This document shows, piece after piece, positions 10,008-29,499 of a DNA stretch of 32,000 nt. The translations under genes were made by a program, and so were the position numbers. The notes under the pieces are model-generated. The model ran no database searches, was not told the DNA's origin, and saw nothing but the letters and a program-made list of their open reading frames with translations. How positions within the stretch are numbered: position 1 is the stretch's first letter; the number at the start of each line of letters is the position of its first letter. The stretch comes from Gemmata obscuriglobus (GTDB lineage: Bacteria; Planctomycetota; Planctomycetia; Gemmatales; Gemmataceae): contig NZ_CP042911.1 in NCBI RefSeq assembly GCF_008065095.1, forward strand, positions 7,920,001 through 7,952,000, read 5' to 3'.

Positions 10008-10153
10008 GGTCGGTCCGGTCGGGTGAAAGCGACATTGTACCGCCGGACCGCGCGTTCCGTCCGCCGCGGCGCTTGCGGCACCCGGCAGCGCGTGCCATAA
10101 TCCTCCCCGCGCCGCGGATTCCCGCGGCGCGCCTCTCACCACAGGGCACGCAC

Positions 10154-10492
10154 ATGTACACCGCGTTCCGCGCGCTCGCGCTGTCCGCCGCCATCGCCGC
10201 ACTGGTCGCATCCGGCGGCGGGCTCGCCCCGGCGCTTCAGAAAGACAAGGACAAGAAGCCCGAGGACAAAAAGGCCGTCGATAAGAAAAGCGACGACGTC
10301 GGGACGGTCGAGGTGTGGAAGGCCAAGGACGGGTGGCGGTTCAAGGTGCTGAACGCGAGCGGCAAGGCGATCGCCGGCAACTACGTCCCGCACGAGAAGA
10401 AAGAGGACGCGCTCAAGGAGGTGGAGTTGCTCAAGGCGACGCTCGCCAAGGGCAAGGTGGAGGTGAAGGACGAGAAGGGCAAGGACAAGTGA
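10154..10492 (+). CDS. Exported YegP/DUF1508-like protein with Lys/Asp-rich flanks
   Basis: Internal ATG of ORF 10073..10492. The N-terminus MYTAFRALALSAAIAALVASGGG looks like a signal peptide. The core VEVWKAKDGWRFKVLNASGKAIAGNYVPHEKKEDALKEVELLK resembles a single DUF1508 repeat. Confidence 0.6.
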   Translation: MYTAFRALALSAAIAALVASGGGLAPALQKDKDKKPEDKKAVDKKSDDVGTVEVWKAKDGWRFKVLNASGKAIAGNYVPHEKKEDALKEVELLKATLAKGKVEVKDEKGKDK

Positions 10493-10503
10493 CCGAAGCG
10501 GTC

Positions 10504-10545
10504 GTGAAACGCTCGGCGGCCGGTCGGAAGCACCGAGCGTTTCAC
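10504..10545. terminator. Bidirectional hairpin between convergent genes
   Basis: Perfect 13-bp inverted repeat: GTGAAACGCTCGG (10504-10516) and CCGAGCGTTTCAC (10533-10545). It sits between stop 10492 (+) and stop 10551 (-). Confidence 0.55.
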
Positions 10546-10550
10546 CTCGC

Positions 10551-11558
10551 TCAGTCGAGGTTGATGACCGCGCCGTCCGCGATCGGTCCCATGTTCAGCC
10601 ACGTGGCCGGGTCGATGTTGTTGCGGATGAACCGCACGCTGGCGTCGCCGAGGCACGTGTTCGCCCCGCCGCTGTGCCGGCTCCGGCTGTAGTAGACGAT
10701 CGGGTTGGCCGAGTCGCTGGCCGCACACGGCAGCCCTTGCGCGGGCTGGTTGTTACAGTAGGTGGCAAAGGAGATCCGGTCCGGGGTCGCGGTGTTCGGC
10801 GGTTGGAACGTGCTGAACCCGGCCGCCTCGCCGTACCAGGTGAGCCCGCGGAAATCCTTCCCCTGGCTCTGGAGCACTTCGCCGATCATTACCGTGTTCG
10901 TGAGCCCGTCCGCCACGTCGATCAGCCGGGTGAACCGTACGTTCGGTGCCTGCGTTGCGGTCACTCCCGCGCCCGAGAGGATCGTTGCGGGTGCCAGCGC
11001 GTCGAACATGCCGGCCTGCGGCGTGTACCCAGCGGGAGAGGGGACCACGGCCCCCAAGCCCCCGACCGTACTCCGGTTCCCCGCGCACACGGCGTAGTTG
11101 TTGGTCGTGATGTTGCTGTACGGGGTGTTGTCGTTGTCTCCCGGACACGTCAGAACGGAATACCGGCGGGTGGTGACGTTGGTCGTGTTCGGGGCGGTGC
11201 TGAACCGGGGAGGCGTGCCGGGGACGCCCGGAGCCGGGTAGTTCGAGTTGAAGTTGTCGTTGCCGCCCCAGTTCTGGTACAGCTTGAACGCGTTTTCAAG
11301 CTCGACATAGGGCATGATCGTAACGACCCAGGTGCCCCAGCAGCACCCGCTCCCGAGCATCGCCGGCAGCTTGCCGTTGCCGCCGTTGTCGTGGTAGTTG
11401 TGCATCGCCAGCCCGAGTTGCTTCAGGTTGTTCTTGCACTTCATGCGGGCCGCCGCCTCGCGCACCTTCTGGACCGCCGGCAGCAGCAGCCCGATCAGGA
11501 TCGCAATGATCGCGATCACCACCAACAGCTCGATGAGCGTAAAGCCCCGCCGCTTCAT
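10551..11558 (-). CDS. DUF1559 protein with an N-terminal prepilin-type cleavage/methylation motif
   Basis: [57 protein letters not shown] is the hallmark planctomycete DUF1559 N-terminus. The C-terminal ...[15 protein letters not shown] tail also fits. Confidence 0.9.
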
Positions 11559-11606
11559 GAATCACACCTCTAATGAATGAACGAACGCGGCGTGCGGTGC
11601 CGCACG

Positions 11607-12050
11607 TTATTTGAGGTCGAAACTGATCTCGTTGCCTGCCCCGGCTTTGATCTCGGCCGAGAGTTCGGTGCGCGTATTGTATTTGGCCGGAAGGTATTCT
11701 TTGGCCGGGTTCGAATAATCGCCGGGTCCCTCGTCAGCCGGGCGCGCCGGGGCCTTCGGGTCCGGCGAGCAGACGGTCACCTGGTACTGACCGGCGGGGA
11801 GGCCCGAAACCGCGGGAATGTTGTAGCGGCCCTCGGCGATGGTACCGACCGCAATGTGTGCCCGGTCGGGCGAGCGGAACGTGATTGTCCCGGCCTTGAG
11901 CGGCTCGCCCCTGTACTGAACGGTGCCCGTGACGGGATACTTCTTTGGCTCGGACGAGCCGCAGCCCGAAAGCAGGACGCACACCAGTGTGAGAACGGCC
12001 GCGCCACGCAAGGGCTGGACTCGGTGCGCGAGTGTGAACGCTACAAGCAT
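11607..12050 (-). CDS. Small lipoprotein, carboxypeptidase-regulatory-like fold; frequent DUF1559 partner
   Basis: Lipobox LLSGC is present. VTGTVQYRGEPLKAGTITF...GRYNI...LPAGQYQVTV is an all-beta pattern. It lies 48 nt upstream of the DUF1559 gene on the same strand. Confidence 0.65.
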   Translation of the reverse strand: MLVAFTLAHRVQPLRGAAVLTLVCVLLSGCGSSEPKKYPVTGTVQYRGEPLKAGTITFRSPDRAHIAVGTIAEGRYNIPAVSGLPAGQYQVTVCSPDPKAPARPADEGPGDYSNPAKEYLPAKYNTRTELSAEIKAGAGNEISFDLK

Positions 12051-12075
12051 CGCGTTAGCAGCGGACGTTGGTTGT

Positions 12076-12102
12076 CCCGCACCTGAGGCATAACGGTGCG
12101 GG
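12076..12102 (-). terminator. Hairpin downstream of the C45 peptidase gene
   Basis: CCCGCACC (12076-12083) pairs with GGTGCGGG (12095-12102) around an 11-nt loop. No U-tract. Confidence 0.3.
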
Positions 12103-12187
12103 GTTGTGAGCGATAGGAAAAGGTAGCTCGCTCCTCAAACGGGACGCAAGTGCCAAACGGGTGAAAGCACCCACATTTCGTGCGGCC

Positions 12188-13627
12188 TCACTTCCTCGCC
12201 GGCGGGTCCGCCGTCAGCACGGTCCACGGGTGCGGTTCGAGTGCGACGATCTCCGGGTGGTCCCGCAGTTGCTCCGGCGTGGGCTTCCACACCTTCCCGG
12301 TCGGGGGGCCGTAGAGCGCGTGGGTGGAGAGCTTCGCAGCCAGCGCCGCCGTCGTGTACTTCGCGTCCAGCGCCGTGTCCTGCGCGAGCACCTCGTTGGT
12401 GAACGCCTTCTTGGCGAACGCGGCGTCGATCTTGCCGGCGTGCGCCTTGTACAGCGCCAGCCACTCCTTGTCGCGCTCGTCAGGCTCCCACTCCGTGCCG
12501 GTCGGCCGGTCGGCGTCGTCCGCGGGGAGCGCCTCGAGGCGGACCGCCCGGTCTTTCGCGTTGTTGCAGCCCCAGTAGAACCCCTTCGTGCCCCCGAACC
12601 ACTGGTCCTTGGAACTGCGCCACAGCTTTTGGGCCTTCGTGCCCAGCTCGAACATCGCGATCTCGTTGGTCTTCAGGTCGCCAACGAGCCACTCGTTCGC
12701 ATACAGCCCGTTGTTCTTCTCGGACAGCGCCTTCACCACCGTGTCGATGCCCTCGGCGTACTGGATCGCCTTCCGGGTGCGGCTCGCGAGCGGCACCCCG
12801 CCGGCGTCGAACGGGGTCTGGTCGATGGTCGTCTCGCACAGCAGCACGCCGGCGTCGTTGATGTAATAGTCCTGGCTCGACCACACCCCGCCCGGGAACG
12901 CCTGCATCACGAACCGGCGGCCCTTGTGCGGCGCCACGTCGATCCAGTAGTTGACGAACGGCCCGGCGGTGAGCCCGGCCATCGTGATGTGCCCGAACAC
13001 GATCTTCCCGTCGGCGGTCGCCGGGCCGGTCGCGATGAACGCGGAGCAGTGGTCCACCTTTTTGGGGCGCGGGGCCGGCGCGCGAGGCCGCCCGGGGCGG
13101 GGGAACGTCTTCCCCTCCAGCCCGGTCGGCATGGTGTGCAGCGCGGACTCGAGGCTCGCCAGCTCCATCTGCACGTTGAGCACCGCGACATCAAGCAGGT
13201 CGATGTCGCGCCCCTCGTAGCTGGCGCCCGCGTCGGTGGCCCCGTCCGCGATGCCCTTCATCTCCTCGAGCAGCTCGGAATCGATCTTGCGGAGGAACGC
13301 GGCGTTCGTGATCAGCCGGACGGCCTTCCACCCGTCGGCGGGCGCCTTCGGGCTGCACTCGGTCGCGAGCATCCGGACGTACGCGGCGATCTCCTTCGCG
13401 AGCAGCCGTCCGTGCTGGTACCCGCGGGGGTACGGCTCGCCCTCGATGTGCAGCACCACCCAGCCGTCTTGCGTGTACCGGTAGGCCGGGCCGTAGCGGT
13501 TCGGGTCGGCGGCGGGTTTCGGCACCGGATCGGCCGCGGCGGGCTGGACCGGTGCGGGCGGTGCGGGCGGTGCGGTCAGCACCAGGGGTGCGAAGCCGAG
13601 CGGCAAAACGAGTGCGAGCCAGCGCAT
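12188..13627 (-). CDS. Secreted C45-family / Ntn-hydrolase peptidase (acyltransferase-like)
   Basis: Signal peptide MRWLALVLPLGFAPLVLTA is present. VLHIEGEPYPRGYQHGRLLAKEI and the presumed autoprocessing nucleophile context VDHCSAFIATGPATADGKIVFGH match my memory of C45/phospholipase-B-like Ntn hydrolases. Confidence 0.65.
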   Translation of the reverse strand: MRWLALVLPLGFAPLVLTAPPAPPAPVQPAAADPVPKPAADPNRYGPAYRYTQDGWVVLHIEGEPYPRGYQHGRLLAKEIAAYVRMLATECSPKAPADGWKAVRLITNAAFLRKIDSELLEEMKGIADGATDAGASYEGRDIDLLDVAVLNVQMELASLESALHTMPTGLEGKTFPRPGRPRAPAPRPKKVDHCSAFIATGPATADGKIVFGHITMAGLTAGPFVNYWIDVAPHKGRRFVMQAFPGGVWSSQDYYINDAGVLLCETTIDQTPFDAGGVPLASRTRKAIQYAEGIDTVVKALSEKNNGLYANEWLVGDLKTNEIAMFELGTKAQKLWRSSKDQWFGGTKGFYWGCNNAKDRAVRLEALPADDADRPTGTEWEPDERDKEWLALYKAHAGKIDAAFAKKAFTNEVLAQDTALDAKYTTAALAAKLSTHALYGPPTGKVWKPTPEQLRDHPEIVALEPHPWTVLTADPPARK

Positions 13628-13796
13628 AAGCGATCGGCCTCAGCGGATCGGGGCGGACAACGGTTCAGAGCGTTCAGCATCGCACACCGGCGCGGCGTTG
13701 GGAACGGCAATTGCTGGGCCGCCGGGCGTGAAAGCGCCCGGCTCGGGGTGTGATGGGTCGGGCGCCCGTGGGTGAGTTCACAACGGAGGACGTGCG

Positions 13797-14203
13797 ATGC
13801 GTCAAACGCTGTTCGTCGCGCTGGTGAGTGCCACGGTGGCGCCGGGGCCGGCTCAAGAGCGGCAACCGCCGCCGGTGCGCCCGGCCGCGCGGCTGGCCCA
13901 GGTGGAAGAAGAGGCCGAGGTGCTGGAGGCCGAACGGGACGTGAACAAGGCGCACATTAAGGCGGCCGAGGTCGGAGTGAAAGCGGCGGAACTCGGGGCG
14001 GTGCGACTCAAGAAGGCGCTGGGCGGCGGAGCCCTGGCCGTCGAGGAGTTCGATCGGGCGAAACTGGAGGTCAAGATGGCCCTCAACTGGAGATCCGCCT
14101 CGCCGAGCTGAAGGCGTTCGACGTGCGGCTGAAGTTCGCCCGGAAACGCGTGGAGGACGCGAAAAGTGCCAGCCCGCCGCCGTCCGGTAAGGCACCGAAT
14201 TGA
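13797..14203 (+). pseudogene. Secreted coiled-coil protein with an apparent 1-nt frameshift near 14084/14085
   Basis: ORF 13797..14111 has a signal-like N-terminus and heptad-like AEVLEAERDVNKAHIKAAEV. It ends ...KLEVKMALNWRSASPS*. The other frame continues coherently as LEIRLAELKAFDVRLKFARKRVEDAKSASPPPSGKAPN* and stops at 14201-14203. Confidence 0.45.
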
Positions 14204-14247
14204 ATGTGGGAATCGGCAGCACTGATGGCACCAAATCCCCCAAGGTT

Positions 14248-14275
14248 ACCCCCGCCTGCATCAGCAAGCGGGGGT
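14248..14275. terminator. Hairpin between convergent stops (coiled-coil gene and A2M gene)
   Basis: ACCCCCGC (14248-14255) pairs with GCGGGGGT (14268-14275) around a 12-nt loop. Confidence 0.35.
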
Positions 14276-14296
14276 GCGTCGCTACCGCACTCGCGG

Positions 14297-17200
14297 TTAC
14301 TCGTTCCCGGCGGCCGGCGCGATCCGGATCGACAGCGGCTCCACCCAGTGCTTGTGGTCCGCGTCGTAGTAGAGGTACCCGCGGCTCGCCGGCCCGCGGT
14401 ACGTTCCGGGCACGTCGCACACCAAGTCGATGCTCAACTCGACCTTCTGCTCGGGGGCCAGCTCGCGCCAGTACAGCACCAGCTCGCGCGAGCCCTTCAG
14501 CTCGAAGTACGCGACGGCGCCTTTCTCCCGCAGGTCCGTGAGCTGCTTCAGGTCGGTGGGCACCTTCATCCCGGCCGGGATGCCGATCACCGCCGTGGTC
14601 ATCCCCTGGCCCTGCTTCTGGCGGTTCTCCAGCGTGACCGCGAGCGGCACCGTGTCGCCCTCGGCCGCTTCCGCACTCGCGAGTTTGGTCGCGATGCGCA
14701 CCGCGCACCGCTCCGCGCTCAAGGGCGTCAGGGTGGTGTAGGTGTAGCTCAGGGCGAACGGGTACGGCTGTTTCGCGTCCGTGGCGATCGCGATCTCGTT
14801 CCGCCCCCCGAGCTTGAAGACGGTTTCGGGGTTCGGCACGTCCAGCCCGATCACGTCCACGTCGTTCGGGGTGAACGTGCGGGTCGCGGCCACCGTGCCG
14901 TCTACCAGCAGGCGCAGCTCCCCGGCCTCGGCCGGGTGCTTGTTCTTCTGGGCGTGCAGCGCCAGCGCTTTCAGCGCCATGATGGTCGACTGCGTGGACC
15001 CGAACCCGCCGTAGCCCCCGCGCTGCTGCGCGATCCACTTGATCGACTCCTTCGCGGCGGTCGCGTAGCTCGGGTCGTTCGCCCGGAGCCAGCCCAGAAG
15101 CGCAAGCGCGGTGGTTTCGATCTGGAGGTCGCGCCCGCCGGACCGCGTGATGCTCATGATCCCGCCGGTCACCGCCCCGCCCTTCGCGTGCTTCTCCTTG
15201 AGCCGGTCGAGCAGCTTGTGGCCGGTCTCGCGGTCGCCGCGGAGCAGCGCCACGTTGGCCGCCAGCGCCACCGTGTACGCGTCCCTGCCGGTCGCGGAGT
15301 TCTCGTCGAGGGCCGCGGTTTTCAGTGCCGTGATTTCGGTCCGGAGGTCGAGCTTCTCCTTGTCCTCGGGGTCGCTCTCGACCAGCGCCCAGACGATGTA
15401 GGCGTCGGTGGTGGGCTTCGGGGAGCCGCCGAACCCGTCGAGCGCGCGGGCGTTCCGCAGGAACCCGCCCTTCCCGTCCCGGCGCGACAGCAGGAACGCC
15501 TGTGTGCGTTTGATTAGTTCCGGGTCCACCGGGTGAACGCGGGCCATGTCCTTGAACTGCAGGAGCCCGTACGCGGTGAGCGCCTCGTGCTGGCTGTCGG
15601 CCTTCCCGAACCACTCGAACCCGTGCTTAACGCGGTTCGGGGTGTCCGGGCACTCGAACGACGTGAGCCGGCCGTACCCCCGGTCGAGCAGCCCCCGCGC
15701 CCGCGTCGCGGCCTCGGGGTTGGCCTGGTTCGACTGGTTCAGGTAGTCCAGGATCAGCGCGTTCGGGTAGTTCGTGGTGGAGGTCTGCTCGAAGCACCCG
15801 TGCGGCTCACGGAGCAGCCCGTCGAGCCCCTTCACCAGATCGGACATCGACGTGGGGTACATTTCCAGGCGCACCTTGAGCGTCCCGGGCACCACATCCT
15901 TCGGGAGCGTGACGCTGCTGGTCGCGCGGCCCTTCTCGAGCATGTCGCTGAACGCGCCCACCCCCGGGAACCCGTCCGGCACCACGCGGACGGTCCGCCG
16001 GATGACGTCCTTATCGGCGGCCGGGATGCTGGTGCCCTCGATCACGAGGCTCGCCGGACCGTCGCGCGTGTCGGCGTTCAGCTTCAGGAACTGGCGGCCC
16101 GATTTGAACGGGTCGAGGTTGATCGCGCCTTTCAGCGAACCGTCCGTCTTGAAGCCCGTTGCGGTGGTCGCGAACGCCACGTTGCGGCGCACGGCGCTGT
16201 CGTTGGTGACGCGTACGGGCACGTCGATGGTGTCGGTGTGGGCGACCTCCAGCGGCAGCTTCGGGTCGAGGCTGAACGGCTTGCGGGCCTCAATGGTTTT
16301 CGTGATCGCGCCGACGCGGCCGTCGAGCGTGTGCCCGGCGACCAGCACCTGATAGCGGGCGATGTCGTCGGAGAGCTGGAACTCGACGCTTGCTGTCCCG
16401 GTCGCCGGCAGCACCAGCACGGGGTGCCAGTACACGGTTTCGGCGAAGTCGGCTCGCACCTCGCCCAGCGCCGGGTCGCGCTCGTGGGCGTACTCGCGCA
16501 CAACGGATGGCGTGACCGTCGGTGTGACCGGCCGTGCTGTCGACTGTGCCACCGGGTCGAGCACCGGCGCCTCTGGGAAACCGTCTCGTACCGGTGGCCC
16601 GAGAGCCACCTTGCCACCCACGGGTCGCTGGGCAAGCGCGTGGGCGAGCCATTCCTTTTCGGGCGACGGCTTGACTCCTACCTGTGGGGGCGTCCGTTGG
16701 TTGCGGTCGAGTACGAGGCCGCGACCGGCCGGGAAGAAGCCGGCTGGAGCGGGTGAGCTTGGAACGCCCACCGGCGTCGGTCCCTTGGGGGCGGGCGTGC
16801 CGCCCGCCAGGTCGATCCCCTTTCGTGGTCCCTGCGGACCAATTCCCGTGAGGGGAACCGGAGCCATCGGCGCGGCTTCCATCGCCGCTCGCGCGTCCGC
16901 TTCAAGCGGTGACTTCCGGAAGAACAGCTCGCCGCCACCCGCACCCGGCGGCTTAATCGAACTGCCCACGAACTCAAACGTGGGGGCGGACTTCTTCGCA
17001 CTCGTCACGGACTTCACGGCAATCAGCACCAGGACTCCAAGCACCACAAGACCGGCCGTTACCAGTGTCGCGCGGGAGCGGCCGGCTCCGGTCGCCGCCA
17101 CGAGGCCCTTGAACCCCAGGAACGCGAGCGTCAGGACGAGCACGACCGTGAGCACCGGCACGGCCGCGTCGCGCGCTGTATCGAAACGCTCGCTGTACTC

Positions 17201-19984
17201 GTTGAGTTCACTCGTCGCGACGGACTTCTTGATCTGCGCCGCGGAGACGGCGGCGTTGGCCGCGGTGACCGCTTCGTTCCCCTTCGCACTCAGAGCGTTG
17301 AATTCGTCTTCGACCGCCGCGGTCGCCAGCCGCACCTGCTCGACCCGCGGCGCGAACTCGGCGGCGATCCGCTGCTCTTCGAGCTTGAACAGTTCCAGCG
17401 GCGCCGTCAGCCGCTGGCCGTGGGCCACCAGCATCTGGTCCACGTCGGCGCGGTCCTCGGCCTGCGGCGGGGCCACGTCCTGCTCCGCGAACCGGCGCCA
17501 GCCCTGGGTCCCGAGCAGCAGGTCGAGCGCGACCGCCGCTTTCGGGTGATCGGTGAGCAGGAAGTCCGCGTGCTCGAGTTCTGCCGAGTTGCGCACCTCT
17601 CCCGAAAGGAGGAAGTGCGTCGACTGGAGCCGGTCGTGCTTGTTGTCGGCCATCGTGATGACGCTGCGGTTGACCACGCCGACCAGCAGCACCGCGGGCG
17701 TTGATTGGCCCTTCTCATTCCGGGCGGACAGGTCGAGCTTCACCTTCCCGCCGGGGGTGTAGCGGTCGCGGTCGGGTTTGGCGTCCAGAACGAGGTGTTC
17801 GCCGGACCCGCGGAACACGAGTCGCTCCGCCCGCGGAACCAGCGCCGTGCGCCCCGGGGCGTCGCCGCTCAGTTCCTCGAACACCGTCACGCGGGTCACG
17901 CCGCCGGCCGATTCGTCGCCCTTCAGTGAAACGTCGAGCGGCGCGTTCGCCTCCAACTCGACCTTCTGGTGCGCGACGAGGTTGCCGCGGGCGTACGCGC
18001 CGACGTGGAGCGTCTTCGGGCCGCGGGCGCTGTGGAGCCGCACGCGCACCGCGCCGCCGCGGGGCGTCGCCGCGTCGAGCGCGGTCAGGGCGACGCCGTC
18101 GGGCTTGGCCGCCGGCAGCGGGAACCCGTTCGGGGTGGGCGGCGTGATGCCGAGCGGCGACGAAACCTTCAGGAAGTACTTCACGCCGGGCTTGGGCGTC
18201 AGTACGAACGCGCCGTGCCCGCGGTTCACGCCGGGATTTTCGGCGTCCGTGAGGGTGCTCACTTCGGCGATCGTGTTCGTGCCGTCGGTGATCGTGCCTT
18301 TCAGATCCGCCGGTTTCCCGGCAGCTCCGGGCGTGCGCACCATGAAGTAGACGCGCCCGGGGACGTTCTCGACCATCTCCCCGCCCTCGGGGAAGAACTC
18401 GACCTTCAGGTTCTTCGTGACGAGCGGGATCGGCCGCACGATCGGTTCGGCGTCGCTGCCGTCCACCACGTTCACGCTCAGGGTGGCGTTGGGAACGGCA
18501 CCGGGCGCGACCTTCTCGAACACCTCCGCGGGCAGCTTGAACCGCACGTCCAGGTAGGTCTTCCCTTCAGAGGTGGTGAACCGCGCGTTCGGCTGCTCGT
18601 GGAACGGCTTGTCGCCGGACGCGGCGACCACGTTCGCGCGGGCGTCCTTCATCGGGCCGCCGGCGGTACGCGAGACCTCGATCCGCGCCTGCACCACGTC
18701 GCCGGGGCCGTAGCTCTTGCCGTCGAACTCCAGCTTCTTCTCGAACACGTCGGGCACGTACCGGTTCACGATGAACTTGCGCGTCTCGAGCAGCACTTCC
18801 TTCTGCGTGCCGCTCTCGACCTCGTACAGGTCGAGCTTGTACTCGCCGCCCGGTGCGTCGGCCGAGAGCGCGTGCTCGCCCACCCCGAGCCCGCGAAGCG
18901 GTTGGTCATCAGGGCCATTAACGGGCTTCAGGTCGCGCAGCACGCGGCCGTTGCCCGTTGCGAGCGGGGTGACGGTGTCCGCCGGGTCACGCAGCTTGAA
19001 CGCGAGGTGCTGCTCGTGGGCCGGCGGCTTCAGGGTGGACCGGTCGAGCGTGAGCGACCGGAACCGCACCACCTCGCCCGGCTTGTAGAGCGGCTTGTCG
19101 GTGACCAGGTGCGTGACGTACACCGGGCGCGCCAGCGACAGCCGCTCGGCGAGCACACTCTTGCGGTCGTCGTTCGTGTGGGCGACGACTTCGAGGAACA
19201 GGTCGGTGCCCGGCTTCACCCGCTCCCAGAACGCGACCGGGAGTTCGAGGTTCGTGGCCCCGACCGGCTTGTCGTCCGTCTTCCGCAGCAGTTCGCCGCC
19301 GCGGGCGTCCTTGACGATCAGGTCGAGCCGCTTCGGCCGCCCGACGGCGCCGTGGCGCAAGGTCTCGACGGTCCACTTGTTGGGCGCGCCGGGCTGGACG
19401 TGGGTCGGGCCGGACAGGCGGACGACGAACTCTTTCTCCTCAATGGCTCTGCGGGCGTCGTTCCGCGCCGTGGTGTACTCCTGGGCGAGTTCGGCCTCCC
19501 GCGCGAGGGCGGCGGCGAGCGGCCTCCGCTGCTCCTCGCGTGTGGCAGCCTGCTCGGCTTGGACCCGGGCAAGTTCGGCGCGGCGTTCCGCGATCTTTTC
19601 TTCGGCCCGGGCGACATCGCGCGCCCGGGCGGCGTAGCCGTACACCTGCGAGCCGATCAGCCCGCCCACCGTGCCGATGACGGCCACCCACGCGATCGCT
19701 TGCCACGACGGCACCCGGCTCGCCTTCTTGGCCGTTGCGGGGTCGGCTTTCGGTTCGGCGGTAGCGGTGCCGGGCTCCGGCGCGGTCGCCGGTTCGGGCA
19801 GGCCGGCGAAGTGCCCGATCAGGTCGGCCTGGAAGCTCATGAAGCGGATGTAATGCGCCTCGGCTTCCGGGTGCATCAGGACCAGCTCTTCGAGCCGCTG
19901 CGTTTGCTCGGGGGTGATCGTCTCTTCGCAGAGCGCGTCGAGCAGCGGCTGCAGTTCGGTGAGAATTTCGGACGCGGGTGTCAT
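14297..19984 (-). CDS. Anti-sigma-like N-terminal domain + TM + alpha-2-macroglobulin-like thioester protein (1895 aa)
   Basis: Part of ORF 14297..20614. The ATG at 19984 overlaps the sigma gene stop (ATGA). Residues 1-60 are helical (LLDALCEETITPEQTQRLEELVLMHPEAEAHYIRFMSFQADL), and a TM lies at about 19631-19702. MG-domain signatures are DKPLYKPGEVVRFRSLTL, VEFFPEGGEMVENVPGRVYF and LLGTQGWRRF. The A2M core has ETVYWHPVLVLPATGTASVEF. The thioester is GCFEQT. TED/receptor-type motifs are EALTAYGLLQF, DAYIVWAL and GSTQSTIMALKAL. Confidence 0.85.
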   Translation of the reverse strand: MTPASEILTELQPLLDALCEETITPEQTQRLEELVLMHPEAEAHYIRFMSFQADLIGHFAGLPEPATAPEPGTATAEPKADPATAKKASRVPSWQAIAWVAVIGTVGGLIGSQVYGYAARARDVARAEEKIAERRAELARVQAEQAATREEQRRPLAAALAREAELAQEYTTARNDARRAIEEKEFVVRLSGPTHVQPGAPNKWTVETLRHGAVGRPKRLDLIVKDARGGELLRKTDDKPVGATNLELPVAFWERVKPGTDLFLEVVAHTNDDRKSVLAERLSLARPVYVTHLVTDKPLYKPGEVVRFRSLTLDRSTLKPPAHEQHLAFKLRDPADTVTPLATGNGRVLRDLKPVNGPDDQPLRGLGVGEHALSADAPGGEYKLDLYEVESGTQKEVLLETRKFIVNRYVPDVFEKKLEFDGKSYGPGDVVQARIEVSRTAGGPMKDARANVVAASGDKPFHEQPNARFTTSEGKTYLDVRFKLPAEVFEKVAPGAVPNATLSVNVVDGSDAEPIVRPIPLVTKNLKVEFFPEGGEMVENVPGRVYFMVRTPGAAGKPADLKGTITDGTNTIAEVSTLTDAENPGVNRGHGAFVLTPKPGVKYFLKVSSPLGITPPTPNGFPLPAAKPDGVALTALDAATPRGGAVRVRLHSARGPKTLHVGAYARGNLVAHQKVELEANAPLDVSLKGDESAGGVTRVTVFEELSGDAPGRTALVPRAERLVFRGSGEHLVLDAKPDRDRYTPGGKVKLDLSARNEKGQSTPAVLLVGVVNRSVITMADNKHDRLQSTHFLLSGEVRNSAELEHADFLLTDHPKAAVALDLLLGTQGWRRFAEQDVAPPQAEDRADVDQMLVAHGQRLTAPLELFKLEEQRIAAEFAPRVEQVRLATAAVEDEFNALSAKGNEAVTAANAAVSAAQIKKSVATSELNEYSERFDTARDAAVPVLTVVLVLTLAFLGFKGLVAATGAGRSRATLVTAGLVVLGVLVLIAVKSVTSAKKSAPTFEFVGSSIKPPGAGGGELFFRKSPLEADARAAMEAAPMAPVPLTGIGPQGPRKGIDLAGGTPAPKGPTPVGVPSSPAPAGFFPAGRGLVLDRNQRTPPQVGVKPSPEKEWLAHALAQRPVGGKVALGPPVRDGFPEAPVLDPVAQSTARPVTPTVTPSVVREYAHERDPALGEVRADFAETVYWHPVLVLPATGTASVEFQLSDDIARYQVLVAGHTLDGRVGAITKTIEARKPFSLDPKLPLEVAHTDTIDVPVRVTNDSAVRRNVAFATTATGFKTDGSLKGAINLDPFKSGRQFLKLNADTRDGPASLVIEGTSIPAADKDVIRRTVRVVPDGFPGVGAFSDMLEKGRATSSVTLPKDVVPGTLKVRLEMYPTSMSDLVKGLDGLLREPHGCFEQTSTTNYPNALILDYLNQSNQANPEAATRARGLLDRGYGRLTSFECPDTPNRVKHGFEWFGKADSQHEALTAYGLLQFKDMARVHPVDPELIKRTQAFLLSRRDGKGGFLRNARALDGFGGSPKPTTDAYIVWALVESDPEDKEKLDLRTEITALKTAALDENSATGRDAYTVALAANVALLRGDRETGHKLLDRLKEKHAKGGAVTGGIMSITRSGGRDLQIETTALALLGWLRANDPSYATAAKESIKWIAQQRGGYGGFGSTQSTIMALKALALHAQKNKHPAEAGELRLLVDGTVAATRTFTPNDVDVIGLDVPNPETVFKLGGRNEIAIATDAKQPYPFALSYTYTTLTPLSAERCAVRIATKLASAEAAEGDTVPLAVTLENRQKQGQGMTTAVIGIPAGMKVPTDLKQLTDLREKGAVAYFELKGSRELVLYWRELAPEQKVELSIDLVCDVPGTYRGPASRGYLYYDADHKHWVEPLSIRIAPAAGNE
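15785..15796 (-). other. Thioester motif C-F-E-Q (CxEQ) of the A2M-like protein
   Basis: The reverse complement of 15785-15796 reads TGC TTC GAG CAG, in frame, within REPHGCFEQTSTTNYPNAL. Confidence 0.75.
17015..17160 (-). other. Internal TM hairpin at the bait position of the A2M-like protein
   Basis: VPVLTVVLVLTLAFLGFKGLVAA - TGAGRSRA - TLVTAGLVVLGVLVLIAV. Two roughly 20-residue hydrophobic helices are joined by a short basic loop. Confidence 0.6.
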
Positions 19985-20574
19985 GCCTGCCCCTCCTGCA
20001 CGAGCGAGTTCTGGACGCACCGGAACAGGTTCTCGCGGACCTTCGCCAGCGCCTTGTAAACGGCGTCCAGCGAGCGGCCCAGTTGCTCGGAGGCGGACTG
20101 CGTGGTGGCCCCGTCCGCGAACCGGTGCGCGAGCAGGTCGCGGTCCGGCTGGGGGAGCTTTTCGACGCAGCGGGTGAGCGCCGCGCGGCGCTCCTCGAGT
20201 TGCAGCTCGTCGGCCTGTGCGGCGGCGGTCTCGGCGAGCCGCTTCACGAAGATGGCGCTGAGCCGGGCCTGCGCGCGGGTCGATTTCTTGTGGAAGTCGA
20301 GCACCTTGTGGTACGCGACCTTGCGCGCCCAGGCGATGAACTCGGTGGGGGGCGCGTCCGCGTCGAACTTGTCCCACATGGTGAGGCTGGTCTCCTGGAG
20401 CACGTCGTCCGCGTCGGCGCGGTGCGGCAGCAGGGTGAGCACGTAGGCGTAGAGCCGGCGCTCGTTCTGGAGGAACAGTCGCAAGAACAGCTTGTGCTTG
20501 TCCTGTGCGGGGCGGGGCGTGCCGTCCGAGGGAGCGGCGGGCGCGTCGGGCCCCGCGTCGGCGTTCACGGTCAT
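19981..20574 (-). CDS. ECF-type RNA polymerase sigma factor (sigma-70 family, group 4)
   Basis: ORF 19981..20640 trimmed to MTVNADAG (GTG 20640 is an alternative). Region 2 has RLYAYVLTLLPHRADADDVLQETSLTMWDKF. Region 4 has LPQPDRDLLAHRFADGATTQSASEQLGRSLDAVYKALAKVRENL. Confidence 0.85.
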   Translation of the reverse strand: MTVNADAGPDAPAAPSDGTPRPAQDKHKLFLRLFLQNERRLYAYVLTLLPHRADADDVLQETSLTMWDKFDADAPPTEFIAWARKVAYHKVLDFHKKSTRAQARLSAIFVKRLAETAAAQADELQLEERRAALTRCVEKLPQPDRDLLAHRFADGATTQSASEQLGRSLDAVYKALAKVRENLFRCVQNSLVQEGQA

Positions 20575-20642
20575 GTCGAACACCTGCGCGTGGAATAGAG
20601 GTGACCGGCCGCACGCGGGCCGGGGCGAGAAGAACCGCACCC

Positions 20643-20667
20643 TACAGTGGACCCCATTGTCTAGACC
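20643..20667. repeat. IS3 terminal inverted repeat (orfB-proximal end)
   Basis: Direct alignment with the reverse complement of 21856-21880. Confidence 0.75.
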
Positions 20668-20686
20668 AAAAAGTTGCTATCCTTCG

Positions 20687-21553
20687 CTACTGTTTCGTCG
20701 GGGCCTTCGTGGCTCCGACGCCATACACCTGAGCCGGGGTGCGGTAGTCCAGGGACTGGTGTAACCGCTCGGTGTTGTAGAACCCGAAGTACGCCCGGAG
20801 CCCACTCTCCAGGGCCGGCACCGACTCGTAACCCTTGAGGTACACGTCCTCGTACTTGACGCTCCGCCACAGGCGCTCCACGAACACGTTGTCCAGGCAC
20901 CGGCCCCGCCCGTCCATGCTCACCGCGACCCCGGCCCGCTCCAATCGCCCGACCCACGCGGCGGCCGTGAACTGGACTCCCTGGTCCGTGTTGAACACCT
21001 CCGGCTTGCCCCGGCCCAAGGCCTCCTCCAGCATGTCCTGGCAGAATGACCCGTCCAACGTGTTGGACAGTCGCCAGGCCACCACGTACCGGCTGAACCA
21101 GTCCATCGTTGCGGCCAGGTACATGAACCCGGTGGGCATCGGGATGTACGTGATGTCCGTGCTCCACACCTGATGGACCCGGTCGATGGCCACGCCCCGC
21201 AACAGGTACGGGTACACCTTGTGCCCGGACCCGACCGACAGCTTGGGCTTGGGGTACAGGGCCTCCAACCCCATGATCCGCAACAGCCGCTGCACCCGCT
21301 TGCGGTTCACCTCGTGGCCCTGGGTGCCCAGCCACGCGGCCAGGCGCCGGCTCCCGTAGAACGGGCACGTCGTGTACTGCTCGTCGATCAACCGCATCAG
21401 CGTCAGGTTCTCCGCGCTCTCCGGGGTCGGCTCGTAGTACACCGTCGAGCGGTTCAATCCGATCAGCTCGCACTGGCGCCGGACGCTCAGCTCCGGGTGC
21501 TCGGCCTCGATCCGGGCACGCTTGGCCTCAGCCGAGGGCGGCCGATTTTTTTT
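20687..21553 (-). CDS. IS3-family transposase OrfB (DDE/rve catalytic part); no independent start
   Basis: The frame is open from just after the TGA at 21554-21556. It reads KKNRPPSAEAKRARIEAEHPELSVRRQCELIGLNRSTVYYEP..., then WSTDITYIP, FNTDQGVQFT, RGRCLDNVFVERLWRSVKYE and YNTERLHQSLDYRTP. The ORF-track segment 20687..21457 starts at a TTG. Confidence 0.85.
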   Translation of the reverse strand, partial: KKNRPPSAEAKRARIEAEHPELSVRRQCELIGLNRSTVYYEPTPESAENLTLMRLIDEQYTTCPFYGSRRLAAWLGTQGHEVNRKRVQRLLRIMGLEALYPKPKLSVGSGHKVYPYLLRGVAIDRVHQVWSTDITYIPMPTGFMYLAATMDWFSRYVVAWRLSNTLDGSFCQDMLEEALGRGKPEVFNTDQGVQFTAAAWVGRLERAGVAVSMDGRGRCLDNVFVERLWRSVKYEDVYLKGYESVPALESGLRAYFGFYNTERLHQSLDYRTPAQVYGVGATKAPTKQ

Positions 21554-21815
21554 TCACCCAGTCGAGTTCCACCTTGAGGCGGCCGATCTGCTCGTACAAC
21601 TCGGTCGTCTTGTCTTCCGGGGGGCCGGTGCCCTTCGCCCCCGAGGCGAACACGGCCTCGGCCCCGGTGAGCAACTGCTTCTTCCACCCATGAATCAGGG
21701 TCGGGTGGACGCCGTGCTGACTCGCCAGTTCGTTGATGGTCTTGTCGCCCTTGAGGGCCGCCAGCGCGACCTGGGCCTTGAACGCCGCCGAGTGACTCTT
21801 CCGCTTGCCCGCCAT
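21528..21815 (-). CDS. IS3-family transposase OrfA (HTH)
   Basis: MAGKRKSHSAAFKAQVALAALKGDKTINELASQHGVHPTLIHGWKKQLL followed by a leucine-zipper-like tail. It ends 6 codons after the A9 run. Confidence 0.9.
   Translation of the reverse strand: MAGKRKSHSAAFKAQVALAALKGDKTINELASQHGVHPTLIHGWKKQLLTGAEAVFASGAKGTGPPEDKTTELYEQIGRLKVELDWVKKKSAALG
21546..21554 (-). promoter_or_regulatory. A9 homopolymer recoding site at the orfA/orfB junction
   Basis: The plus strand shows T9 at 21546-21554. On the minus strand this reads GTG AAA AAA AAA TCG in the orfA frame. orfB is in the +1 frame as assembled (G TGA AAA AAA AAT CGG). Confidence 0.7.
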
Positions 21816-21855
21816 GGGTTCCCCTTTCCTGGGCCTCCGGTATAGCTTAACCGGC

Positions 21856-21880
21856 GGTCCAGTTTTCGGGGTCCACTATA
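21856..21880. repeat. IS3 terminal inverted repeat (orfA-proximal end)
   Basis: Direct alignment with 20643-20667. Confidence 0.75.
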
Positions 21881-21972
21881 CCCCGCCGGAAAAGCGGTTC
21901 GGCAAAGGGAGCGGTTCTTTGCTACTTAGTTGACGCCGCTGGGGCGGATTGGAAGGGAAAAATCGGAACGTG

Positions 21973-22581
21973 TCACTCGTCGCCGCCGAGCCAGCGGCAC
22001 ATGATGTCGGACCGCATCACGTACTTGCGGCCGTCGGCGACCGGGGCGCCGCGGTGGTAGAGGCGGTGCGGAAACACCAGCACCTTCCCGGCTTCCGGCT
22101 GCACCCGCACGATGGGGTCGTCGCCCCGAGTCCCCCCGTGCGAGCGCAAGTTGAACTCGGTGGCCCCGCCCGAAACCCCGCCGTTCAGGTAGATCATGAG
22201 CGTGAACGCGCTGCGCTCGGCCGGCGACCGCTCGTAGGCGCCGTCGAAGTGCCAGTCGAACTGCTGCCCCGGGTCGTACCGGTAGAACCGCCAGCGCTCG
22301 TTCAGCCCCACCGGCTGCCAGAACTGCACCCGGTCCGGCACGAACGGCCGGAGCCGCTCCCACACCGACCGCGCGATGCCGGCGTCGTCGATCATGACGC
22401 GGTCGTTGTTGCGGATGTCCTTGCGCATGACCGGGCCGCCCGTCGTGGTGATGGGCGCGTCCCCGTAACCCGCGGACTCGGTCATCGTGATGTAGTAATC
22501 GCACTCGTCCGGCGAGAAGAAGTCGTGGATCACGAACAGGTCGTCGCGCTCGGTGAGGAACTCTTTGCGCATCTCGGGCAT
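21973..22581 (-). CDS. 2OG-Fe(II) oxygenase (prolyl 4-hydroxylase-like)
   Basis: ORF 21973..22614 trimmed to MPEMRKEFL. The motifs are RFYRYDPGQQFDWHFDG (HxD), ...VLVFPHRLYHRG (distal His) and ...KYVMRSDIM (Arg/Lys 2OG contact). Confidence 0.7.
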   Translation of the reverse strand: MPEMRKEFLTERDDLFVIHDFFSPDECDYYITMTESAGYGDAPITTTGGPVMRKDIRNNDRVMIDDAGIARSVWERLRPFVPDRVQFWQPVGLNERWRFYRYDPGQQFDWHFDGAYERSPAERSAFTLMIYLNGGVSGGATEFNLRSHGGTRGDDPIVRVQPEAGKVLVFPHRLYHRGAPVADGRKYVMRSDIMCRWLGGDE

Positions 22582-22590
22582 GACGAACCT

Positions 22591-22620
22591 CCGCGGGTGT
22601 GTGCGGAGCGACACCCGCGG
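22591..22620. other. Perfect 10-bp-stem hairpin in the 5' leader of the oxygenase gene
   Basis: CCGCGGGTGT (22591-22600) pairs with ACACCCGCGG (22611-22620) around a 10-nt loop. It starts 10 nt upstream of ATG 22581. Confidence 0.4.
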
Positions 22621-27426: not shown

Positions 27427-27601
27427 GTGACCCCTCCCGGTCGGGAGGATGCAGTTCATGTGCCGTCCGGCGCACGAGCGGGTCGCGCCGGACGGTGAAG
27501 CGCACCGTTCGGACCTGGAATTTGAACCGACGGATTTCTGTCCGCTCGGCGGCCCGGTCTGGCAGTATCACGGGATCGAGTTCCACTCGCTGGAGTGCGT
27601 C

Positions 27602-29485: not shown

Positions 29486-29499
29486 GACTTACGTAGTTG
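29483..29499. repeat. IS terminal inverted repeat (contains the transposase stop codon)
   Basis: Direct comparison with the reverse complement of 30534-30550. Confidence 0.8.

Follow-up and report, generated by a model that had tools for sequence, protein, structure and literature searches.

ECAM/YfhM of E. coli and the A2M of Salmonella are periplasmic, inner-membrane-anchored protease traps composed of multiple MG domains and bearing a thioester. The class I membrane anti-sigma factors (RsiW, RseA, and MucA; zf-HC2/ASD type) are released by regulated intramembrane proteolysis. An anti-sigma factor may also meet the attacker itself, as in the RsiV/SigV system, which senses lysozyme: RsiV engages the attacking enzyme, and sigma release follows. 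A dedicated sensor partner is used in the SigP system, where PbpP engages the beta-lactam and triggers release via RsiP (PMC8092216).

The locus discussed here lies in a window of 32,000 nt of the Gemmata obscuriglobus genome (contig NZ_CP042911.1, positions 7,920,001 to 7,952,000) and encodes, next to an ECF sigma factor, a protein in which an anti-sigma module is, with high probability as far as the architecture alone is concerned, fused to an A2M thioester protein. A literature search found no paper describing an anti-sigma::A2M thioester design, and the architecture is apparently undescribed so far.

Operon Layout and Recurrence of the Fusion

The two genes of interest are as follows:

19981..20574, minus strand: ECF sigma factor gene, 197 aa, TIGR02989 (Rhodopirellula/Verrucomicrobium) subfamily, with Sigma70_r2 and Sigma70_r4_2
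14297..19984, minus strand: gene for the putative anti-sigma::transmembrane A2M thioester protein, 1895 aa plus stop, continuous ORF

The sigma protein scores 142.7 bits against TIGR02989 (cut-off 124.55) and, by Pfam, contains only the sigma-2 and sigma-4 domains that characterize ECF (group 4) factors; its start, MTVNADAG (ATG 20574), is kept in relatives. The gene ends with GCA TGA (19983-19981), and the ATG of the next ORF occupies 19984-19982, giving the 4-nt overlap ATGA. A preliminary description of this DNA had correctly reported both the overlap with the sigma stop and the uninterrupted 1895-aa ORF, which is 100% identical to a G. obscuriglobus protein (P0001) in the homologue set. 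The reading frame of the long ORF remains open upstream to 20614 because of the high GC content, and the coding signature there belongs to the sigma frame (GC3 0.91). The gene 3' of the long ORF is phospholipase-B-like; elsewhere in the window there is a second transposase gene, besides the IS3-family element discussed below. The sigma factor and the 1895-aa protein are best explained as a two-gene signaling cassette with translationally coupled genes.

The survey of sigma-A2M adjacency and fusion proposed in the preliminary description was carried out in species-representative genomes, where 510 relatives were found. The full-length architecture occurs in more than 110 proteins, from both isolates and MAGs, in Gemmata, Frigoriglobus, Zavarzinella, Telmatocola, and Limnoglobus, and at 56 of the 65 informative loci the gene immediately upstream, in the same orientation, encodes an ECF sigma factor. 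This sigma gene is the sole widely conserved neighbor of the A2M-family gene. At the G. algarum locus the protein identity is 94% (best tblastn segment), all 1895 residues are matched, and the overlap is preserved.

These data bear directly on whether the long ORF is an artefact, namely a misassembly, an accidental fusion in one genome, or a pseudogene decaying beside an insertion sequence. An IS3-family element does adjoin the operon, the window has its second transposase gene, and a high GC content leaves spurious frames open; however, beyond its presence in several genera and its near-identical G. algarum counterpart, the ORF has a GC3 bias typical of coding sequence, and hundreds of its alignment columns, spread from end to end, are invariant. 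The recurrence of the architecture in relatives refutes a fusion artefact, and we give next to no credence to an artefact of any of these kinds; the IS may silence the operon in this strain. With the fusion recurrent, the CxEQ motif invariant, and the A2M fold recovered (see below), the doubts raised in the preliminary description about an accidental fusion, an unconserved cysteine, or a missing fold fall away.

The N-Terminal Module and the Putative Sigma Partner

The N-terminal part of the protein, up to its first membrane segment, consists of:

19805..19984, minus strand: three-helix module of "type A", aa 1-60, putative cytoplasmic sigma-binding anti-sigma domain
19700..19804, minus strand: Pro/Ala-rich linker, aa 61-95, predicted to be disordered (pLDDT <50) and cytoplasmic
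19643..19699, minus strand: transmembrane helix 1 (TM1), aa 96-114, hydropathy 1.68

Helices are predicted at aa 4-19, 25-36, and 39-60 of the module in a structure model of low confidence (pLDDT 61). TM1 lies near the position given earlier for a membrane segment (about 19631-19702) and, in an AF2 model, within one continuous helix spanning aa 93-183.

Residues 1-123 have no Pfam match up to an E value of 5 and no HxxxCxxC motif. The module has no PDB sequence match, hhalign against the N-terminus of zf-HC2 returned a probability of 1%, and Foldseek comparisons of the low-confidence model with RsiW and MucA were nonsignificant (E about 1-4). Of the profile and structure searches suggested in the preliminary description, those on the macroglobulin half recovered A2M and TED domains and the MG1-6 fold, but no curated anti-sigma model matches the N-terminus. 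The absence of significant similarity to curated anti-sigma models, to solved anti-sigma structures, and to zf-HC2 by hhalign would fit a module that is not an anti-sigma domain at all, with the sigma factor merely driving transcription of the A2M gene and the tail serving for anchoring, sorting, or another partner.

The pairing of sigma and module classes across relatives argues otherwise. Sigmas like that of the window pair with the type-A module in eight of eight loci (the two checked against TIGR02989 both exceed its cut-off), while the other ECF sigma clade, of which the three members checked match only the generic TIGR02937, is accompanied at 42 loci by a zf-HC2 or HC2-like module and at 6 more by an unclassified one. 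No mixed pair occurs among the classified loci, and paralogues without the N-terminal module are also without the sigma gene, so that the two classes covary without exception and are lost together. Moreover, the N-terminus of the paralogue P0115 scores 34.8 bits against the Pfam zf-HC2 anti-sigma model (cut-off 22.2), and the module of this larger clade is, at the level of sequence profiles, a bona fide zf-HC2 domain. About one third of the A2M family carries no anti-sigma module, indicating that the trap works without signaling.

Additional support came from a profile search with the type-A module, which found 1712 proteins. Ten of the longer matches (404-846 aa) were scanned with Pfam and carry FecR/Laminin_G_3, PSCyt2/PSD1, or CBM96 domains C-terminal to the module; in the FecR/Laminin_G_3 proteins the match covers residues ~1-70 (E 1e-28 to 1e-11). 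The one FecR/LamG locus examined for sigma coupling (L081) has a 4-nt overlap with a sigma gene of the TIGR02989 subfamily, whose product is 61% identical to that of the window, and also has the TTCCAA/GTCAAC promoter motif described below. The FecR domain itself (PF04773) has no match in the 1895-aa protein. By this comparison, and not from the literature, a TIGR02989-sigma/type-A cassette is defined here, of which the locus shows every component: the shared module, the TIGR02989 sigma, the overlapping genes, and the upstream motif.

Taken with a gene arrangement that is standard for sigma and anti-sigma genes, these comparisons make the anti-sigma role of the N-terminal module well supported, and a module devoted to some other task is quite improbable. 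The type-A module would then hold the sigma factor inactive at the cytoplasmic membrane.

The Upstream Candidate Promoter Motif and an IS3-Family Insertion

Two features are found upstream of the sigma gene:

21929..21954, minus strand: candidate ECF-type autoregulatory promoter motif TTCCAA-N14-GTCAAC, within the conserved block 21921-21965
20630..21919, minus strand: IS3-family insertion sequence, orfA 21528-21815 and orfB 20687-21457, outside the system

The motif has one match in the window versus zero expected. Exactly one copy is present upstream of the sigma gene in all nine loci having the window's sigma class and in none of the 74 loci lacking it, and on this count of sequence matches the motif is specific to that class; its spacing across the TIGR02989-sigma cassette loci is TTCCAA-N13/14-GTCAAC. 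Its position upstream of its own operon suggests autoregulation.

The IS3-family element encodes HTH_Tnp_1 and rve/HTH_21 domains and is bounded by 14-nt terminal inverted repeats (20630-20643 and 21906-21919). In two relatives (L001 and L007) the flanks of the site are joined directly, without the IS, and this alignment indicates that the element interrupts the promoter-to-sigma leader in G. obscuriglobus. As 1.29 kb of IS DNA separates the sigma gene from its promoter motif, expression in this genome is uncertain. The separation of motif and operon by the element was absent from the preliminary description.

The Macroglobulin Half

The remainder of the protein is predicted to be organized as follows:

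19436..19642, minus strand: stalk helix 1, aa 115-183, predicted periplasmic and continuous with TM1, pLDDT ~80-90 over most of its length
17720..19426, minus strand: beta-sandwich region, MG1-MG6-like, aa 187-755, with Foldseek matches to C3/C5/C4 beta chains
aa 292-386, minus strand: Pfam MG2, above the curated cut-off
17423..17668, minus strand: helical linker with the ELEHADFLL...LLGTQGWRRF block, aa 773-854, much of the block invariant
17168..17404, minus strand: stalk helix 2, aa 861-939, predicted periplasmic and continuous with TM2, part of a single helix (aa 861-964) in the model
17015..17167, minus strand: transmembrane hairpin TM2 + TM3, hydropathy 2.51 and 2.73
16505..17014, minus strand: Pro/Gly/Ala-rich low-complexity linker, aa 991-1160, predicted periplasmic
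16193..16438, minus strand: A2M domain PF00207, aa 1183-1264, 48.5 bits, E 8e-13
14960..15853, minus strand: thioester domain TED_complement PF07678, aa 1378-1675, 113 bits
15785..15796, minus strand: thioester motif C-F-E-Q, aa 1397-1400
14300..14959, minus strand: C-terminal region, aa 1676-1895, presumed second half of CUB plus an MG8-like domain

All the Pfam assignments (MG2, A2M, TED_complement, Sigma70_r2, and r4_2) exceed the curated cut-offs. The AF2 model that includes stalk helix 1 was built from an alignment of 41 sequences and has a pLDDT of 78.5 over aa 91-1000. Residues 187-755 match the beta chains of C5, C3, and C4 by Foldseek with E values of 2.8e-24 to ~1e-19 over ~650 columns (probability 1.00). 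The thioester is strictly conserved: CFEQ is invariant in alignments A1 and A4, and all 113 full-length homologues have GCFEQ. An invariant VREYAH...DFxETVYW motif immediately precedes the A2M domain. A Pfam scan of aa 1676-1895 gave no match; the alignments to C4 and A2M reach ~aa 1785, and two homologues have PF17973, the MG10 domain of bacterial A2M.

The motifs quoted in the preliminary description are all in place, with DKPLYKPGEVVRF at aa 296, FFPEGGEMV at 530, LLGTQGWRRF at 823, ETVYWHPVLVL at 1182, CFEQ at 1397-1400, and GSTQSTIMALKAL at 1662. LLGTQGWRRF, taken there for the start of an MG domain, belongs in the model to the helical linker that follows the sixth MG domain; the invariant columns of this linker are at aa 803-835. 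The verified MG, A2M, TED, and thioester signatures bear out the claim of a complete A2M-type protein except for the canonical bait region, for here the bait position, between the halves of MG6, is filled by a ~340-aa insertion made up of a coiled coil, a transmembrane hairpin, and a low-complexity linker. The hairpin and linker thus take up precisely the place that belongs to the bait region in A2M and to the processing site and anaphylatoxin domain in C3.

The hairpin consists of TM2 (aa 940-958, nt 17111-17167), a basic 13-aa loop, and TM3 (aa 972-990, nt 17015-17071); only one of the 113 full-length homologues lacks it. Hydropathy therefore yields three transmembrane helices where one had been reported, and a hairpin overlooked at the bait position changes any mechanistic model. 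On hydropathy and logic only, the 1895-aa protein would have three membrane passes and a cytoplasmic N-terminus. Two segments could serve as bait: the flexible stretch at aa 832-862 that follows the LLGTQGWRRF block and has a low pLDDT in the model (candidate segment 1), and the linker at aa 991-1160 (candidate segment 2), whose columns are unconserved and whose length varies in alignments A1 and A4.

Proposed Mechanism and Its Meaning

In the proposed mechanism, a stalk helix of ~70 residues extending from TM1 would bear six MG domains arranged in a ring, the counterpart of the C3 beta chain. The polypeptide would then go back to the membrane through another long helix, which becomes TM2, leave it again with TM3, and proceed through a flexible linker of ~170 residues to the equivalent of the C3 alpha chain, that is, the A2M domain, CUB, and the TED with its CFEQ thioester. 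A periplasmic protease may cleave an exposed segment at the bait position, either aa 832-862 or the 991-1160 linker, upon which the protein would rearrange in the manner of A2M/C3 and capture the protease through its thioester. The stub in the membrane, whether cut or rearranged, would become unstable or be degraded, as in the regulated proteolysis of other membrane anti-sigma factors, and the freed sigma factor would act at TTCCAA-N13/14-GTCAAC promoters, including that of its own operon. The whole chain, a sigma/anti-sigma cassette with A2M-type release triggered by a protease, is neither favored nor disfavored, and protease-triggered sigma release, taken by itself, falls just short of an even chance. 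A cut at the bait position alone leaves the periplasmic part beside TM1 unshortened, and classical site-2 proteolysis requires shortening. The thioester could also have another target.

The same architecture and anti-sigma role might instead answer to a signal other than a foreign protease, with release reporting the engagement or consumption of the trap and replenishing the operon's products. The TED thioester might react with another nucleophile or attach to an envelope or environmental polymer, or the cell's own periplasmic proteases might turn the trap over. This would agree with the motif upstream of the operon itself, with the function that the trap evidently has of its own in module-less paralogues, with a bait-position linker that is low in complexity and unconserved and not a tuned bait, and with the lack of a protease gene among the conserved neighbors of the A2M-family loci. 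However, the protein retains every hallmark of the protease-triggered A2M/CD109-type proteins, its top sequence matches are the protease inhibitors CD109, A2M, and A2ML1, and flexibility and exposure, as in the segments at the bait position, are typical of A2M baits. We consider a signal other than a foreign protease unlikely; damage to the trap outside the cell probably switches on transcription.

A broader and rather doubtful interpretation is that the Gemmataceae have, embedded in the cytoplasmic membrane, a surveillance receptor resembling complement. This would be a thioester protein of the C3/CD109 type whose beta-like and alpha-like halves are linked by a membrane hairpin in the bait position, and to which two unrelated sigma/anti-sigma cassettes were joined independently. 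If true, such an architecture would convert periplasmic cleavage or thioester firing directly into transcription. It would give the bacterial A2M family a transmembrane signaling role, none having been found described, and constitute a direct sensor of "protease attack". It would also be relevant to the origin of the A2M/complement scaffold, since the metazoan branch is closer to this family than ECAM is.

Comparison with Known Systems

The proposed logic resembles that of RsiV/SigV and RsiP-PbpP/SigP, where an attacker is engaged by the anti-sigma factor or its partner and sigma is released. The sensor folds are unrelated, those systems have no covalent thioester capture, and they have experimental tests behind them, whereas the Gemmata system is known from sequence comparison and models.

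With the ECAM/YfhM-type traps the Gemmata protein shares the layout of an inner-membrane-anchored, multi-MG thioester trap, predicted here to be periplasmic. ECAM has no anti-sigma module; conversely, no lipoprotein signal was found at the N-terminus of the 1895-aa protein, where the helical module is followed by a TM at aa 96, and no PBP1c (pbpC) gene was found adjacent in the window or as a conserved neighbor. The family profile matches the ECAM-type structures 5a42, 4ziq, and 4rtd only marginally (E 0.22, 12 bits), as opposed to 1e-44 for CD109. Membership in the ECAM/YfhM type was rejected on this basis, and the ECAM/YfaS comparison offered in the preliminary description is misleading.

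For the alpha-chain-like half, the PDB sequence search gave as best matches CD109 (E 1.3e-44), A2M (~7e-41), and TEP1 (2.5e-32), with matches ranging to C3 (1e-19), and the alignments to human A2M and the C3 alpha chain start near the A2M domain; those to the TED region are CD109, A2M, TEP1, C4, and C3d. Like CD109, A2M, A2ML1, and insect TEP1, the Gemmata protein has the A2M domain, a TED_complement-type TED with CxEQ, and the MG1-6 ring. Like the metazoan CD109 it is predicted to be membrane-tethered, although through three predicted transmembrane helices instead of a GPI anchor. In contrast to the metazoan proteins, it is bacterial, predicted periplasmic, and sigma-coupled, starts with a predicted cytoplasmic anti-sigma module, and has the coiled coil, hairpin, and low-complexity linker in place of the bait region.

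In the comparison with C3, C4, and C5, the beta chain (MG1-6) is matched in structure by the N-terminal half across ~650 columns, and the C-terminal half aligns to the alpha chain in a stretch that runs from the alpha'NT/MG6 motif (R.DF.ETVYW, whose complement counterpart we take to be RSEFPESWLW) through the TED, with the insertion at the beta/alpha chain junction. Unlike the complement proteins, it has neither an anaphylatoxin nor a C345C domain, and its halves are joined via the membrane and not split by furin processing, with no convertase context.

The class I anti-sigma factors RsiW, RseA, and MucA resemble the Gemmata protein as predicted here: a short helical domain lies in the cytoplasm, a transmembrane helix follows, and the sensor is extracytoplasmic. 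Their genes come directly after, and overlap, an ECF sigma gene, as here (ATGA; sigma upstream at 56/65 loci). The profile-recognizable ASD that marks the class, with HxxxCxxC in its zinc-binding forms, is present in the paralogue P0115, the larger clade carrying a true zf-HC2 domain, and absent from the window's module, which belongs to a different sequence family. The Gemmata sensor also differs in being a thioester protein of ~1780 aa with two extra transmembrane helices. Finally, the planctomycetal FecR-like anti-sigma proteins that accompany TIGR02989 sigmas have the N-terminal module in common with the Gemmata protein; where they carry a periplasmic sensor of FecR and Laminin_G_3, it has a transmembrane A2M scaffold.

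The sigma/thioester protein gene pair

The ECF sigma factor and the large thioester protein are encoded by two overlapping reading frames:

19981-20574, minus strand: sigma ORF, 197 aa, with the 3' end ...GCA TGA
14297-19984, minus strand: large ORF, 1895 aa, whose ATG overlaps the sigma stop codon as ATGA

The frame of the large ORF stays open upstream to position 20614, and a single longer protein was considered; this reading was rejected because the sigma frame shows a coding signature (GC3 0.91) and its start, MTVNADAG, is kept among relatives. The sigma protein contains Sigma70_r2 and Sigma70_r4_2 domains (Pfam) and passes the NCBIfam model TIGR02989, with 142.7 bits against a cut-off of 124.55. 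The large protein is 100% identical to P0001, a protein retrieved in the homologue search under the name 'A-macroglobulin complement component [Gemmata obscuriglobus]', and its Pfam matches, all over the cut-off, are MG2 (aa 292-386), A2M (aa 1183-1264) and TED_complement (aa 1378-1675). The motifs that the preliminary description had read in this protein were all recovered where it had placed them, including the thioester CFEQ at aa 1397-1400 (nt 15785-15796).

Conservation of the fusion

More than 120 proteins of 1800-2050 aa were recovered in the homologue search; they come from Gemmata, Frigoriglobus, Zavarzinella and Telmatocola and from many MAGs. A scan of species-representative genomes confirmed at least 510 matching stretches as relatives, from which 80 loci were kept, nearly all of Gemmataceae or Gemmatales. 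The thioester cysteine, whose conservation had been in question, lies in a GCFEQ motif in 113/113 full-length homologues; in both alignments of homologues (A1 and A4), CFEQ never varies, nor do many other TED residues. A transmembrane hairpin, 100-150 residues past the GTQGWR motif, is found in all but one of the 113. Misassembly or an accidental fusion, raised earlier as a possible explanation of the architecture, was therefore rejected, as the same arrangement recurs across genera and MAGs.

Several genomes hold paralogues both with and without the anti-sigma module described below, e.g., Frigoriglobus P0003 and P0046. Paralogues with neither the module nor a sigma gene occur at L002, L004, L017 and L028, at L003, L011 and L013, and at L029; some of them begin with a short tail, some with another conserved segment (RLTYEAMRRDGRFVPQSPDEVA...), and one with a zinc-ribbon-like CxxC...CxxC tail.

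Family placement

PDB sequences were searched with a profile built from ten members of the family.

Matches of the family profile in the PDB sequence search
CD109: E 1.3e-44
human A2M: E about 7e-41
A2ML1: E 2e-39
TEP1: E 2.5e-32
C4: E 1.6e-21
C3: E 3e-19
E. coli ECAM/YfhM: E 0.22, 12 bits

By profile score, the family stands far nearer to CD109/A2M/TEP than it does to ECAM. The preliminary description had taken the bacterial ECAM/YfaS proteins as its frame of reference; given the ECAM score, the lack of a lipoprotein signal in the large protein, and a downstream gene that is phospholipase-B-like and not PBP1c, this is not the right reference.

Membrane scaffold and macroglobulin ring

Where a single transmembrane segment had been proposed, hydropathy analysis gives three strongly hydrophobic segments, at aa 96-114, 940-958 and 972-990. 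An AlphaFold2 model of aa 91-1000, calculated with a 41-sequence alignment (pLDDT 78.5), arranges this part of the protein as follows:

aa 93-183: single unbroken helix, TM1 plus a stalk of ~70 residues
aa 187-755: beta-sandwich domains
aa 773-854: small helical region
aa 861-964: helix of ~104 residues, a stalk running into TM2
aa 970-999: TM3 helix

In Foldseek, the beta region matches the beta chains (MG1-MG6) of complement C5, C3 and C4 over ~650 aligned columns, with probability 1.00 and E values from 2.8e-24 to about 1e-19, which, together with the Pfam matches, bears out the A2M/TED fold proposed at first reading. TM3 is followed by a Pro/Gly/Ala-rich linker of ~170 residues and then by the A2M domain, which starts with an invariant VREYAH...DFxETVYW motif; we take this motif to be the counterpart of the alpha'NT/MG6 segment of C3. 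Thus, C3-like beta and alpha parts are joined via a membrane hairpin, and the join sits at the position of the A2M bait region or, in C3, of the processing site and anaphylatoxin domain. With a cytoplasmic N-terminus and three TM helices, both halves would be periplasmic.

A separate observation concerns the block ELEHADFLL...LDLLLGTQGWRRFAEQ (aa 803-835, window about 17480-17578), in which, across all homologues, invariant columns are packed about as tightly as anywhere in the N-terminal half; it is located in the helical linker just ahead of the flexible bait-position stretch.

The N-terminal module

The preliminary description had assigned the first ~60 residues of the large protein to an anti-sigma domain. 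Direct profile searches gave this no backing: the N-terminal 123 aa have no match in Pfam or NCBIfam, a profile of the type-A module (the three-helix segment of aa 1-60) has none among PDB sequences, and hhalign finds no relationship between this module and a zf-HC2 N-terminus (probability 1%). AlphaFold2 run on aa 1-129 without an alignment produced a low-confidence three-helix model (pLDDT 61), and Foldseek returned no significant match for it, though RsiW and MucA were among the top ten. The assignment therefore rests on context, where the comparative evidence is strong.

Of the 65 loci with enough upstream sequence, 56 have an ECF sigma ORF directly before the large gene and on its strand, in agreement with the adjacency that had been suspected. 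The sigma gene is the only widely conserved neighbor of the large gene; across the loci, no conserved operon partner such as a protease, PBP1c or a site-2 protease was found beyond it. Furthermore, the class of sigma factor and the type of module vary together.

Pairing of sigma class and N-terminal module
Window-like sigma (phmmer E < 1e-50; two checked pass TIGR02989 at 145-148 bits): type-A module, 8/8 loci
Other ECF clade (three checked, passing only the generic TIGR02937): zf-HC2 or Cys-less derivative, 42 loci
Mixed pairings: 0 loci

Six further loci of the other ECF clade were left unclassified by the regular expression, five of which look HC2-like by eye, and the start of L057 is miscalled. 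The zf-HC2 module itself is recognized in the paralogue P0115 with 34.8 bits against a cut-off of 22.2, and the 4-nt ATGA/GTGA overlap is common to most type-A loci. Among the nine loci without a sigma gene directly upstream, eight carry neither module (short tail, unrelated N-terminal segment, or zinc-ribbon-like segment), whereas L032, the remaining one, combines an HC2-like tail with a sigma gene at a distance of about 800 nt upstream. L032 (sigma 8341-8913, HC2-like A2M gene 9722-15616) is the sole locus with a non-adjacent sigma, which suggests an intervening gene or a rearrangement.

The type-A module also occurs outside the A2M family. A word-indexed homologue search with a profile of the N-terminal 65 aa found only short contig-end fragments, which were reused to build the profile A3; an exhaustive search with A3 then found 1712 proteins. 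Ten longer matches (404-846 aa) contain FecR/Laminin_G_3, PSCyt2/PSD1 or CBM96 domains by Pfam, and the module is N-terminal in 10/10. At L081, the one FecR/LamG locus examined, a sigma gene shares a 4-nt overlap with the FecR/LamG gene, and the sigma that it encodes is 61% identical to the window sigma (E 1e-83) and reaches 148 bits with TIGR02989. A sigma/type-A cassette thus exists with interchangeable periplasmic sensors, and the transmembrane A2M scaffold is, as sequence comparison indicates, separately joined to two different sigma/anti-sigma cassettes. Such a pattern would be predicted for a module that binds its cognate sigma, with the A2M part as the sensor. An anti-sigma::A2M architecture is considered highly probable.

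Promoter-like motif and IS element

A bipartite motif, TTCCAA-N13/14-GTCAAC, with a variable spacer, preceded by a T-run and followed by a conserved CTAAGTAG, lies upstream of all class-1 (window-like) sigma genes, including that of the FecR-type locus. It is present exactly once in each of the nine class-1 loci and in 0/74 other loci; the window contains it once (21929-21954), against 0 expected by chance. It resembles a typical autoregulated ECF promoter and may serve as such. The window's copy stands 1355 nt away from the ATG of the sigma gene, with an IS3-family element in between:

21921-21965: conserved promoter-like block, upstream of the IS
20630-21919, minus strand: IS3-family element with 14-nt terminal inverted repeats, between the block and the sigma leader, in the same direction as the operon
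21528-21815, minus strand: IS orfA, HTH_Tnp_1
20687-21457, minus strand: IS orfB, rve

Because of this insertion, expression of the operon in this strain of G. obscuriglobus may depend on read-through. In Gemmata algarum (L001, about 2640-2690), the same site holds an element of roughly 47 bp consisting of just the two IS-like inverted repeats (AAGAACCGCTCCCC...GGGGGGCGGCTCTT), for which a deletion derivative, a MITE-like remnant and an excision footprint are all conceivable readings. Directly upstream of the motif, the window has a 2OG-Fe(II) oxygenase gene (21973-22614, minus strand); its 3' end has an aligned counterpart upstream of the promoter block in L007, so that the order oxygenase-promoter is probably shared with at least this close Gemmata relative.

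A metagenome scan for the motif, meant to find the regulon, was dominated, among the matches listed, by chance matches from unrelated low-GC organisms and therefore says nothing about the regulon; among 80 loci taken from the matches listed, one (L160) is a Gemmata-like sigma locus.

Other genes in the window

27449-29485, plus strand: second ECF sigma (Sigma70_r2/r4_2) with a C-terminal extension of ~430 aa
24622-26712, minus strand: full-length S46 (DPP7/DPP11-type) peptidase, Peptidase_S46 E 2e-198
29489-30508, minus strand: DDE_Tnp_1 transposase (Pfam)
5837-7843, minus strand: Ser/Thr protein kinase (Pfam)
10551-11558, minus strand: DUF1559/N-terminal-methylation (pseudopilin-like) protein (Pfam)

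The extension of the second sigma gives weak WD40/PD40/PQQ beta-propeller matches, and the protein belongs to a C-terminally extended kind of sigma whose duplication in Planctomycetes, G. obscuriglobus among them, has been reported (PMC7671368). The S46 peptidase gene, 4 kb upstream of the operon, is not a conserved neighbor in other loci.

Proposed mechanism

The observed features are the gene overlap, the complete set of thioester-protein domains, three hydrophobic segments, a conservation and co-variation that run through the whole family, and the class-specific upstream motif. In the mechanism proposed here, the sigma factor would be sequestered by aa 1-60 of the large protein, which would be oriented N-in, C-out, and the MG ring would be kept clear of the membrane by two stalk helices that are similar in length (69 and 79 residues). 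An exposed segment at the bait position, either the low-pLDDT stretch aa 832-862 or the linker at aa 991-1160, would be cleaved by a protease of periplasmic or foreign origin, and an A2M/C3-like rearrangement followed by thioester capture would leave the membrane stub destabilized or proteolysed, freeing the sigma. We hold this protease-triggered release only tentatively, at somewhat less than an even chance, and it has two weak points. Classical site-1/site-2 proteolysis needs trimming of the region next to TM1, and a cut at the bait position alone leaves that region untrimmed. The second is the paralogues without the anti-sigma module, in which the trap must have a function without signaling.

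Comparison with known systems

A full-text literature search, Planctomycetes and Gemmata included, found nothing relevant on a sigma or anti-sigma factor joined to a macroglobulin or thioester protein, in line with the preliminary description, whose author knew of no such architecture. Macroglobulin, A2M and MG2 likewise go unmentioned in the main text of the paper on ECF reclassification (PMC7826278). Database names of the homologues are 'alpha-2-macroglobulin family protein' and, in a few JGI entries, 'anti-sigma factor RsiW/RskA', so that both halves have been picked up by automated annotation. Among the routes by which bacteria sense their envelope, ECF sigma/anti-sigma pairs rank with the main ones, and for most ECF groups the signal is not known. 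The biochemistry of A2M is very well understood, from bait cleavage through a large rearrangement to covalent capture via the thioester, so that the hypothesis 'protease in, transcription out' is directly testable by standard assays. The presence of two different anti-sigma modules on one scaffold is natural evidence that the scaffold can pass information across the membrane. For the A2M/complement field, the family adds a large bacterial clade, in which the membrane hairpin at the beta/alpha chain junction is apparently unprecedented. Compared with known systems, the protein would be a variant on two counts, apparently undescribed: as a membrane anti-sigma factor it would have a new sensor, and as a bacterial A2M its anchoring and its bait arrangement would be new.
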